DNA of 64,000 nucleotides, taken from IMG/VR virus record IMGVR_UViG_2920693923_000001, positions 64,001-128,000 of that record; one strand, given 5' to 3'. This document shows, in pieces, positions 4,446 through 48,603 of this stretch (its first letter is position 1; each line of letters opens with the position of its first letter). The notes under the pieces were generated by a model. The model made no database searches and was not told the DNA's origin. It was given only the letters and a program-made list of their open reading frames with translations. Position numbers and translations under genes: made by a program. The stretch comes from a virus. Taxonomy: Duplodnaviria > Caudoviricetes.

Positions 4446-4626
4446 AAGTAGGTATATAGTATAAAAGCATAAAGAGTTATATAAAAAAAGCATAAATATA
4501 TAAAAAAGTATAATAACTTCGTAAATGGTCTAACGCCCATTTACTCCGTAAAAATTTGATTGCTTGTTATTGGTTGATAATTTTCATTTGGGTGCATATG
4601 AGATGTACCTATATGATTATTTTTCA

Positions 4627-25798: not shown

Positions 25799-26133
25799 TG
25801 AACAAAGGAGAAGTGTGGTTTGTTGAATTTCCGTTAGAAGAAGATCCAAGTAGAATACTGAATAGACCTGTTGTTGTGCTTGATGAAAATTTACTTGGTG
25901 TATTATCTGTCAAGATAACAAAGCATAAGGCAAGAAAAGAAGATCCTTATGATACTCCTATTATCTATTGGGAAGAAGCGAGTTTGAGATTGGCTTCAAC
26001 TGCGAGAGTATCAAAAGTAACGCTACTTACAAAAGATAGCTTTATATTCAAAATCGGTGATTTACACAAAGATGATTTGAATAGAATTGAAAACATGTAT
26101 AGAAAATTTTTAGAAGATAATGGTGCTGTATAA
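25798..26133 (+). CDS. PemK/MazF-family toxin
   Basis: KGEVWFVEFP...RPVVVL...ITK; TAATG coupling to the antitoxin. Confidence 0.85.
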   Translation: MNKGEVWFVEFPLEEDPSRILNRPVVVLDENLLGVLSVKITKHKARKEDPYDTPIIYWEEASLRLASTARVSKVTLLTKDSFIFKIGDLHKDDLNRIENMYRKFLEDNGAV

Positions 26134-45147: not shown

Positions 45148-46584
45148 TTGACAGAGAATAAAGAAAAAAATAATTATTATGAGAAGAACTGGAAGTTAGT
45201 AAACTTCTGTGAGTTCGATAAATATGCAACACGTTCTTATTGTGCTATTCACAATGAGAATGAAAGTAAAAATCTTGGCGATATTACTAAAGTTGATGAG
45301 ACAAAACTTGAACCATTTAATATGATTTGTGGAGGGTCACCCTGCCAAGATTTTTCGGTCGCTGGTAAGCAGAAAGGTTCTATGTGGACTTGTAAAGATT
45401 GTGGACATGAGTATAATCCACTGACAGTTCATTGGTCAGAAAGAGATAAATGTCCATGCTGCGGAAGTAATAATATTGAGAAGACTCGATCTTCTTTACT
45501 TGTAGAATATCTGAGAGTTATCAGAGCAAATAAACCAAATTTCGGTATGTATGAGAATGTAAAGAATATTGTAGGGAAACAGTTCAAAGATACATTCAAA
45601 ATGTTTACAGATGAGTTGGACGAGTATGGTTACAATGTGTACTGGAAAGTTCTCAACGCAAAAGACTATGGTATTCCACAGAATCGAGAGCGTGTGTATC
45701 TGATTTTTATTAAAAAAGAATTGGATAACGGTAAGTTTACATATCCTGAACCATTTGATAATGGAATGAGATTAAAAGATATTCTTGAAGAGAATGTTGA
45801 TGAAAAATTCTATATTTCAGAAGATAAAGTGCAGAAAATTCTCAATAGTAATTTTATGCAAGAAAAATTAAGAATTCAGGATGTGAATTCATCTTGCAGT
45901 TGTTTGCTTGCGAGAGATTACAAAGATCCAAAATGTGTACCAATGAATAATTCAGATACAAATCATCCTATGAGGATTGGTAATATTTATGGAGAACAAT
46001 TTGGTACTGGATATGCGGGCAACGTATGGGATGAAAACGGTGTATCACCAACTCTAATGACTTGTACAGATGGCGGTAGACAACCGCATATTACAGAAAT
46101 AATGAATAATAAAGTGGCAATTAAACAAGCTACGAAGAAAGGTTACATTGAATGTGAGGTAGGTGGTGTAGCAGATTTATCATATCCTGAATCTAAGACT
46201 AGAAGAGGAAGAGTTCAAGAAGATGGTAATATTTGTCCAACGATTACTGCAACAGAGACAGGTGTTTGCAGGATTGAATCACCTATTCGTGTCAGAAAGC
46301 TTACTCCGAAGGAATGTTTCAGACTTATGGGACTCTCAGATGAAAATTTTGATGCTGCTGAAAAGATGGTTAGTAATAGTCAGTTGTACAAGCAAGCAGG
46401 TAATTCCATCGTAGTAGATGTTTTGTATTACATATTAGTTGAGTTATATAAGGTTATGCCATATTTATTTGATGATTTAAAACTAAGTAGTTTCTTCTCA
46501 GGAATTGGTGCTTTTGAGATTGCATTGAATAGATTATATGAGAGCATTAATACTGGAAATTTTCGTCAGCCACAAGTGGATTAA
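45148..46584 (+). CDS. DNA (cytosine-5) methyltransferase, circularly permuted, multi-TRD
   Basis: GDITK, GGSPCQDFS, ENV, GIPQNRERVY, RKLTPKECFRL, YKQAGNSI; motif I FSGIGAF lies at the C-terminus. Confidence 0.92.
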   Translation: MTENKEKNNYYEKNWKLVNFCEFDKYATRSYCAIHNENESKNLGDITKVDETKLEPFNMICGGSPCQDFSVAGKQKGSMWTCKDCGHEYNPLTVHWSERDKCPCCGSNNIEKTRSSLLVEYLRVIRANKPNFGMYENVKNIVGKQFKDTFKMFTDELDEYGYNVYWKVLNAKDYGIPQNRERVYLIFIKKELDNGKFTYPEPFDNGMRLKDILEENVDEKFYISEDKVQKILNSNFMQEKLRIQDVNSSCSCLLARDYKDPKCVPMNNSDTNHPMRIGNIYGEQFGTGYAGNVWDENGVSPTLMTCTDGGRQPHITEIMNNKVAIKQATKKGYIECEVGGVADLSYPESKTRRGRVQEDGNICPTITATETGVCRIESPIRVRKLTPKECFRLMGLSDENFDAAEKMVSNSQLYKQAGNSIVVDVLYYILVELYKVMPYLFDDLKLSSFFSGIGAFEIALNRLYESINTGNFRQPQVD

Positions 46585-46853
46585 GTTCTGCTTGTGGTGA
46601 TTTAGATAAGAAAATTTATGTATATGATGACTATAATAGCAGGTTTATAAAAGATTAAGAACGAATGGGAACTATCACAACAAACATCGGAGCAAGTGCA
46701 TTACGAAATGGAATAAAACTTATTGAAATATCAAATGTTTGTATTGATGATACACAAGGTTTTGATGGAGTAAGATTTTATAATGGCTACACGCCAACTT
46801 TAAGAAGCCAACGAAGCGGATTAAAAGTTTTTGAAGATACAAGTAGAGAATAA
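46563..46853 (+). pseudogene. -1-frame extension of the MTase with two TRD-like modules, interrupted by TAA at 46656
   Basis: Same frame as track ORF 46665-46853; GTITT and TPTLRS motifs. Confidence 0.55.
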
Positions 46854-46876
46854 TACAATAAGTAGTTGAAAAAACA

Positions 46877-46923
46877 AAACAATATATAGTGTGGAAATAT
46901 TGTAATACATCCTATATATTGCA
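46877..46923. promoter_or_regulatory. Second tandem NrdR-box-like pair
   Basis: AAACAATATATAGTG and ATCCTATATATTGCA, starts 32 bp apart. Confidence 0.6.
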
Positions 46924-48603
46924 TAAAAATTAAGACCGATTGAAAGCGGAACTTCTTTTTTAACGAAAGGAGAGAATATGGAAGGAATAACTAGGAATAT
47001 AAAAGACGAAAAACAGTCTATCCGTAATGAACTTATTCAGAGAATTAAATATTGTGGACAATATATAGTAGACAACGCTGAAATAATCCTTGGAGAAGAT
47101 AAATATCTTGCCGATTTATATTTGACATGTAACTTTTTTGATAGAAGTGAAGCTCCATATGTAACTGTCAATAAAGATATAATCCCAGATGGTTTTATTG
47201 AAGAAAGATAACTTGTGAAGACGATAGGAGAATAAGTATGTATCCAGAATACGATGATTTTTATGAGCCAAGTGAAGGTGAAATGTTTTTTGATGAAATG
47301 AAAGAAAAGTTCAGAGAGATTTTACGTGAAGATGTAAACTCTGAAATTAACAGATTAACAAAAGAAAATGCAGAATTAAGACAGAAAGTTAAAGAGTACA
47401 ATGATAAAAATTGGGATCTGTCTCGTAGAGAAAATGATTTACAGTACAAGATAGACAATTACAAACGAGAGGTAGAAAACGATTTTTACAATAAAACAAT
47501 GGAAGAAGTTTTTGAAAAATTATTAGAAGACTCAGAAGTGTGGTATGCAGAACATGTTCCTCATGAGAAACCAAAATGTAATTTATGTAACGAGGAAAGA
47601 AAACTTATTGCAGTATATCCAAATGGTGAAACTGTAACCAAGGATTGTGAATGTTCTCGACCAGTATATATTTATGAGCCAGCTATTTCATTGAATAAAG
47701 AGATTAAATTTCATAAAGCATATAAGCCAAGATACAGTGATAAAAAGAAAATCTATTTTACTAAAAATCACGAACCAAACAAGGATTATGCAGATGTATA
47801 CGATTATTATAGTGAATTTAGGATAGAGAGTATTTTTGATGATTTTAACGATGATGTAATTCTATGTCACAATGGTAAAAGATATGGAGAAAAAATTGCA
47901 TTCAGAAGTAAAGAGGCTTGTCAGAAATATTGTGATTGGCTTAATAAGGAGAATAAGTAAATGAATAAAGCTGTTTTAGTGTTAGATATGCCAAGTAGTT
48001 GTGATAAATGTCCATGTTTTTGTGGTCATTATTCTGATATGTGCTGCATGGCTTTAAATAACCGTACAATTGATTATCCATATCCGAAAGATTTTAGACA
48101 AAGATGGTGTCCATTGAAAGAATTATCAGATGAAAAACACAATGATGAATATATGGATGAATATTGTGATGGCTATGATGATGGATGGAACTCATTAAGA
48201 AAGAAAATTTTAGGTGAAGATAATGAATAAACTATGTGAAATTTGTGATACAAGAAATAGACTTGGGATGTGTAAAGGCAGAGACGGAGATTTTCAATAT
48301 TGTTTTAGAAGAGTTGGTTCTACGAACGGATTGGAAGAAACAATTACTCCATTTAATACGTTACATGAATTATATGAGAAGTGTAGTTGGCTTAAATGGA
48401 TTGTTCCTGAAACACTTGTACTGGAAAATGAACCATATGGTAGAGGAAACGATATGGTGTTGCTTTGGGGACAATCCGAAAGACAATTAGGAACAAATGA
48501 AGGTCAGCCAGTAGGTTATGTTATAGCTAATGTAACAGAAGATATGGAGGGAATTTTGTATTCGGAAGAATCATAGATTTCATAGGAAGAAAAGGAGACA
48601 ACA

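Follow-up and report, generated by a model that had tools for sequence, protein, structure and literature searches.

The 64,000-nucleotide window analyzed here covers positions 64,001 to 128,000 of IMG/VR record IMGVR_UViG_2920693923_000001, a provirus (Duplodnaviria; Caudoviricetes) of 159.9 kb and 33% G+C, and carries on its plus strand a gene for a C5 cytosine DNA methyltransferase (MTase) whose stop codon lies in the loop of a predicted hairpin. An earlier note, made from the letters of the window, had proposed that a -1 ribosomal frameshift signal at the end of this gene appends extra target recognition domain (TRD) modules to the MTase. We compared the junction between the gene and the downstream -1 frame (the tail) in 80 related loci from contigs of about 150 kb, and scanned IMG/VR DNA for the junction pattern, which gave at least 112 matches, of which 81 were read. 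Hosts of related prophage copies are gut Bacilli metagenome-assembled genomes (MAGs), Blautia faecis, Clostridiaceae and Lachnospiraceae; no close relative was found in the INPHARED phage collection. The features of the locus, in window coordinates, are as follows.

45148-46584, plus strand: C5 cytosine DNA methyltransferase, 0-frame product of 478 aa (PF00145, E 8e-61; alignment of relatives).
46495-46518, plus strand: motif I FSGIGAFE, the S-adenosylmethionine (AdoMet)-binding loop, residues 450-457, C-terminal (six-frame scan; invariant in relatives).
46557-46563, plus strand: slippery heptamer A_AAT_TTT, read as GGA AAT TTT in the 0 frame.
46564-46569, plus strand: 6-nt spacer from heptamer to hairpin, fixed in length and variable in sequence among relatives.
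46570-46597, plus strand: hairpin of 11 bp including two G-U pairs, arms 46570-46580 and 46587-46597.
46563-46655, plus strand: first 31 codons of the -1 frame, which encode the linker SSATSGLSSACGD and, after it, the first half of TRD module e; relatives have no stop in the homologous stretch.
46656-46658, plus strand: TAA breaking the -1 frame; CAA (Gln) in relatives.
46659-46853, plus strand: remainder of the tail; the second half of module e ends at 46727, module f occupies 46737-46829 and the stop is at 46851-46853.

The in-frame heptamer, the 6-nt spacer and the 11-bp hairpin spanning the stop are all present as the earlier note described them, and the -1 frame reads exactly as it had been quoted, including its TAA and final stop. 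The 6-nt loop of the hairpin (46581-46586) holds the 0-frame TAA stop at 46582-46584, and the predicted folding energy of the hairpin is -21.1 kcal/mol (z = -5.07 relative to 200 shuffles). A terminator reading of the hairpin was rejected because it lacks a T tract, and no Rfam family matched it. No hypermutable repeat of the kind that marks phase-variable MTases was found at 46540-46610 of the window. Elsewhere in the window another AAATTTT, at 26104 (genome position 90104, plus strand), is also followed by a strong hairpin (-19.7 kcal/mol), which may be a terminator.

In 58 of the 80 related loci the heptamer is retained together with the 6-nt spacer, the hairpin and a -1 frame that stays open for 51-116 codons. 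A further nine keep the heptamer and are missing the hairpin or the TRD tail, seven of them sharing a deletion right after the heptamer; ten have no heptamer, including L027, L041, L051 and L046; and two are uninformative, one being without a detectable motif I (L058) and the other cut off at the contig end (L069). No change in the heptamer is seen among 31 distinct junctions, and 43 of 43 distinct C-terminal sequences have the codons xxA / AAT / TTT; codons for invariant N, F and G residues close by do show synonymous variation, with a background use of 0.80 for AAT, 0.74 for TTT and 0.42 for GGA. Over the same 31 junctions 97.1% of cells in the hairpin alignment are paired, against only 37-49% in slid registers. 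Changes that compensate each other on both sides are found in 6 of the 11 pairs, and none of 500 shuffles matches the observed values. G-U pairs are frequent in the hairpins of relatives, which points to an RNA of the sense strand as the selected form. In three loci (L026, L031, L034) the hairpin is replaced by an unrelated one, GGAGAAGAG-TAG-CTTCTTCTCC, which keeps the 6-nt spacing and again has the stop in its loop, and L094 likewise has an unrelated hairpin at this spacing with its stop in the loop. Upstream, 39 of 43 junctions have a Shine-Dalgarno (SD)-like AAGGA that ends 11 nt 5' of the heptamer, compared with a background of 12.7%, although these bases also encode a conserved E/K-G. 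The junction is found once per locus and only at the MTase end, a restriction that rules out a general recombination site. The earlier note had made conservation of the heptamer and hairpin the first check of its proposal; the invariant heptamer, the covarying hairpin and the replacement hairpins indicate that both elements are under selection at the nucleotide level.

Comparison of the tails indicates that relatives keep the -1 frame as a coding frame, subject to purifying selection. The dN/dS ratio (nonsynonymous to synonymous substitution) is 0.10-0.45 within tail types, and for the tail type of the window the variable sites, read in the -1 frame, number 11 at first, 4 at second and 30 at third codon positions. 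This frame is closed a few codons 5' of the heptamer. The tails comprise at least eight unrelated TRD module types, each of which continues the -1 frame of the junction. The TAA at 46656 is replaced by Gln in ten of ten relatives with the window tail type. In the nearest relative, whose MTase is 95% identical, the codon is CAA, as the earlier note had suggested it might be in a homolog with an open frame, and 17 other differences occur in the tail, 13 of them at third positions; the CAA and the mostly third-position differences together suggest that the TAA arose by a recent C-to-T change or is a sequencing error. Recoding of this TAA as Gln was considered and ruled out, since TAA is a normal stop here, including that of the MTase itself. 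Only in the window does an intact signal lead into a short -1 frame, of 31 codons. In L083 (a Bacilli MAG) and L054 the junction is intact and another frameshift or a stop interrupts the tail, so the window is not the sole decayed copy. Just 3' of the tail, at 46860-46925 of the window, lie paired palindromic boxes, ACAATATATAGT ... ACTATATATTGT, which are conserved in many relatives.

The resemblance of the -1 frame to two TRDs, asserted in the earlier note from its translation, is borne out by homology: both modules match segments that stand just before motif IX in other C5 MTases. Module f (46737-46829) matches residues 377-431 of P0132 from the Bacillus cereus group, directly before motif IX (E 1e-14), and segments of this type precede motif IX directly in many canonical C5 MTases. 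Module e matches the body TRD of L089, again the segment before motif IX (E 2e-14), and another tail type aligns to the recognition loops of M.HhaI, residues 237-270 (E 0.025). Pfam scans of nine tail peptides returned nothing meaningful, because TRDs are too short and variable. From these matches the tails are judged to be real TRDs.

The MTase to which the tail would be added is circularly permuted. Its PF00145 match spans profile positions 22-322 only; the N-terminus is motif II (KLVNFCEFDKYA) and the C-terminus is ..TGNFRQPQVD*, with the order II, IV (GGSPCQDF), a Zn-ribbon insert, VI, VIII, a variable region with TRD-like units, IX, X and I. All of the C5 MTase motifs are present, PCQ (IV), ENV (VI), QxRxR (VIII), IX, X and FxGxG (I), in an order that departs from the canonical I-to-X arrangement in that motif I comes only after motif X; a six-frame scan of the 160-kb genome found this single occurrence of motif I. 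A group I intron or split gene behind the missing N-terminal motif I was rejected, because thousands of homologues have the same permuted layout, each in one open reading frame (ORF) ending ..GNFxxPQxD. The topology (II-VIII, TRDs, IX, X, I) is seen in at least 19 of the best 150 representatives at 50% identity. Between motifs VIII and IX the tandem modular TRDs vary among relatives, as in multispecific MTases, and relatives of 478, 489, 515 and 555 aa have variable regions that differ by whole TRD modules. The natural permuted C5 MTases listed in PMC5944983 (M.BssHII, M.Alw26I, M2.Eco31I, M.Esp3I and M2.BsaI) share with the window MTase a motif X ahead of motif I. All of them are variable-region permutations, in which the break places IX-X before I-VIII, whereas the termini of the window MTase lie between I and II, a type that PMC5944983 reports for engineered enzymes only and not for natural ones. 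Relative to that listing the permutation between I and II is a new natural type, and the window family further differs from the listed enzymes in having TRDs attached after motif I.

The Zn-ribbon insert (CKDC...CPCC, 45388-45483) separates motif IV from the next conserved block, is kept family-wide and has weak Pfam matches to HypA and Zn_ribbon_8. In P0007, P0127 and the first gene of L092 an intein (Hint plus intein-splicing domains) interrupts motif IV precisely at its catalytic Cys (GGSP|CQDF). L092, the contig with P0154, has four tandem C5 MTase genes of different subfamilies. Two are canonical, one bears an intein, and the fourth is permuted and has its only TRD in the tail; the set looks like a phage anti-restriction array.

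Two permuted proteins show that a tail position can hold the only TRD: P0154 and P0200 have 17 and 13 residues, respectively, in place of the variable region between VIII and IX, and their sole TRD stands after motif I. In an AlphaFold2 model of P0154 the core is confident, with a predicted local distance difference test score (pLDDT) of 88 and 97-98 for the C-terminal beta1-alphaA; its best match is M.HhaI (E 2e-18). A model of the fused protein of L060, built on a shallow alignment, has a mean pLDDT of 34 and is uninformative on tail placement.

Among the 81 matches read, of at least 112, 30 follow motif I of the permuted family and 28 follow a different C5 MTase that has the canonical order, an N-terminal motif I and the end ..GNSIVTTCISLLIEHLYKAQYD..xNF. 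In this second family the cassette stands after motif X, with the same hairpin, -1 tails of 58 to more than 250 codons and the same TRD types. The codon before AAT TTT is GTA, GAA, GCA, ATA or GGA, so that five amino acids are encoded and every codon ends in A. In L063 and L094 a second heptamer and hairpin stand at the end of the first tail, with more TRDs encoded beyond them in the next -1 frame. The cassette of heptamer, hairpin and tail is, from this comparison, judged to be portable between two MTase families and chainable. The first 11 residues, TENKEKNNYCE, and the 3' junction are common to the canonical (L135:3704 onward) and permuted (window 45148) families; this shared N-terminus and junction suggest one phage locus that accepts alternative cores, and the two families appear to be alternative catalytic cores between conserved ends. 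Some loci also have additional small TRD-like ORFs 3' of the tail, with their own SD and ATG (GGAGAATAATG; AAGGTGATTACTGATG), at L068:4891-5118, in L070 and at about 3085-3348 of L094; these may be free-standing specificity subunits that act in trans.

Taken together, the evidence makes it probable that the junction functions as a portable cassette for programmed -1 frameshifting, by which TRDs are appended, with its signal intact in the window and its appended frame carrying a recent nonsense mutation. With tRNA-Asn and tRNA-Phe on AAT TTT, the hairpin 6 nt downstream would stall a fraction of the ribosomes, which would slip one base back to AAA TTT and go on in the -1 frame. Having bypassed the 0-frame stop in the loop, the shifted ribosomes would extend the C-terminus by the linker (..SSACG..) and at least one TRD. 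The gene would then yield two isoforms, a short one with internal TRDs only and a long one with extra TRDs and, presumably, extra methylation targets; the slippage, its efficiency, the isoform ratio and the specificity added by the tail are what we infer from the arrangement. In the window the TAA at 46656 would truncate the extension after 31 residues, and the window phage probably makes no functional long form. The earlier note was right about the signal, and the conserved signal, the open and selected -1 frame, the tails that have no starts of their own and the TRD homology favor its recoding reading. In-frame tails that independent lineages acquired through different indels also speak for it, as do the proteins whose only TRD is C-terminal and the serial junctions of L063 and L094. 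It understated the circular permutation, through which the tail follows motif I and not X, the portability between two families, and the standing of the window as a truncated exception.

Several observations weigh against programmed frameshifting or narrow its reach. The window -1 frame has 31 codons before the TAA at 46656 and 64 further codons to the stop at 46851. Genome-wide, on both strands, there are 1760 XXXYYYZ heptamers, 8 of which precede a structure of -15 kcal/mol or better, so a single heptamer-plus-hairpin site is not beyond chance in this genome and the case rests on the comparison with relatives. Many of those loci are kin to one another and share one source metagenome, so that their counts are not independent events. 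The SD-like AAGGA is absent from the window, which reads GAGAGC at this place, and A_AAU_UUU is not known as one of the classic high-efficiency bacterial heptamers. L046 has a synonymous change of AAT to AAC in the heptamer, yet it retains the hairpin and an open tail. TRD modules that form ORFs of their own in L068 and L094 imply that fusion is not the sole route of expression. Finally, a TRD attached after motif I or X would have to reach the DNA cleft, and the tail of the P0154 model has a pLDDT of only 46-65.

An unlikely but best-surviving alternative is a mutational on/off switch, in which the tail is silent until a small indel at the junction sets the frame, with selection acting during the fused states. 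In-frame tails after motif I do occur in several lineages (L060/P0122, L095/P0307, L027/P0367, L089, P0293 and the P0294-P0311 group), and small indels separate some of these fusions from their -1 relatives: a 5-nt deletion in the hairpin loop of L060/P0122, which is the sole tail fused this way in the 80-locus tally, a 1-nt insertion in L095/P0307, and a C9 tract in L027/P0367, where the tails of L041 and L051 are in -1 after shorter, interrupted C runs. However, the main junction has no hypermutable repeat, 58 of the 60 out-of-frame tails are still open with a dN/dS well under 1, and such a switch fails to predict the invariant in-frame heptamer, the 6-nt spacing, the covarying hairpin and an offset that is consistently -1 and not +1. 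As a separate observation on the three loci with C runs, the run (C9, CCCCACCC or C5, locus positions about 4480-4560) replaces heptamer and hairpin and may be a DNA-level phase switch or a site of single-tRNA slippage on C_CCC.

Slightly less probable still is that the tails form an untranslated TRD reservoir, with the junction serving as a recombination linker for tail swaps and the frames kept open by exchange with expressed copies. The mosaic distribution of tail types, the near-identical junction DNA in two different MTase cores and the tandem junction-plus-module units in L063 would all suit this explanation. Among about 200 family members, however, no variable region was found to contain any of the tail types, which argues against a silent-cassette reservoir; third-position divergence within one tail lineage points to selection in place; and a recombination linker needs neither G-U covariation in a hairpin nor A-ending codons before AAT TTT.

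We regard as quite improbable that the tail is translated alone, by reinitiation or coupling, as a small specificity protein, which in the window would be an ATG ORF of 62 aa at 46665-46853. The ATG at 46665 exists, gene callers annotate a 62-aa ORF in relatives, and the additional TRD ORFs of L068 and L094 have a good SD and ATG. But the ATG is Ile (ATA or ATT) in many relatives, sits in the middle of module e and has no SD before it; no ATG, GTG or TTG with an SD was found near the tail starts of relatives, and five tails of 53-96 codons contain none of these codons whatsoever. Independent translation in relatives, which the earlier note had named as a result that would speak against it, is thus unlikely from the start codons.

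A decaying second MTase copy left by the tandem duplication that made the permutation, its heptamer and hairpin fortuitous or serving mRNA stability, would fit the stop in the window tail and the likeness of motif I followed by TRD pieces to a truncated second copy, but it is a very remote explanation and one that the purifying selection and open frames in relatives and the same cassette after a non-permuted MTase with no duplicated motif I have already largely refuted. The module diversity of relatives and a hairpin that is not terminator-like also speak against it.

Programmed frameshifting into the tail may be part of a wider scheme, which we put forward tentatively and at somewhat less than even chance: C5 MTases of large gut phages would use a portable, chainable heptamer-hairpin-TRD cassette, carry C-terminal TRDs on either core and so outside the VIII-IX variable region, dose each specificity by one shift or two in series and perhaps supply some TRDs as separate subunits. 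We found no report in the literature of frameshifting in a C5 MTase gene, and if confirmed this would be the first recoding event found to alter the DNA-sequence specificity of a methyltransferase. A phage gene could then protect against more restriction systems while its constitutive product is not enlarged. TRDs would work after motif I or X, which would challenge the assumption that they act only between VIII and IX of C5 MTases. Such an arrangement would amount to a new architectural and regulatory principle for these enzymes, a translational counterpart of hsdS shuffling, and TRDs that plug into the C-terminus of a stable core would be useful for methyltransferase design. Since the tails are currently missed or annotated as small hypothetical ORFs, the methylation repertoires of gut phages would then be under-predicted.

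Several groups of known systems resemble the window MTase and its tail in part. The multispecific C5 MTases of the Bacillus phages SPR, phi3T, rho11s and SPbeta, reportedly the work of Trautner and colleagues, are likewise phage anti-restriction enzymes in which one core carries several tandem TRDs, each about 40-50 aa long and acting independently, and relatives have them in shuffled combinations. As far as is known, their TRDs all sit between motifs VIII and IX and in a single frame, whereas the extra TRDs here stand after the last core motif, out of frame, and on a permuted core. Phase-variable Type I hsdS and Type III mod genes also diversify the methylation specificity of one enzyme by alternative TRDs. 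Those genes switch heritably in the DNA itself, through recombination or through slippage at repeats, whereas the switch proposed here is translational and would give both forms in each cell; a repeat tract like those of phase-variable systems is found only in the L027/L041/L051 clade.

In mechanism the likenesses are to established -1 frameshifts. In the G/GT tail assembly chaperones of phages and in OrfAB of the IS3 family, as proposed here, a C-terminal extension is made only via -1 slippage, at a fixed ratio of short to long product. Those extensions are a single conserved domain, in contrast to the at least eight interchangeable and chainable (L063, L094) recognition modules of the MTase tails. 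E. coli dnaX (A_AAA_AAG) is alike in anatomy: it too has an in-frame X_XXY_YYZ, a stable hairpin that begins about 6 nt 3' of it, and an SD-like element comparable to the AAGGA that stands about 11 nt upstream in most relatives, and in its gamma and tau products it likewise has two protein isoforms from one gene. The dnaX shift ends the protein early, whereas here, at A_AAT_TTT, the shift would bypass a stop and add variable, exchangeable modules.

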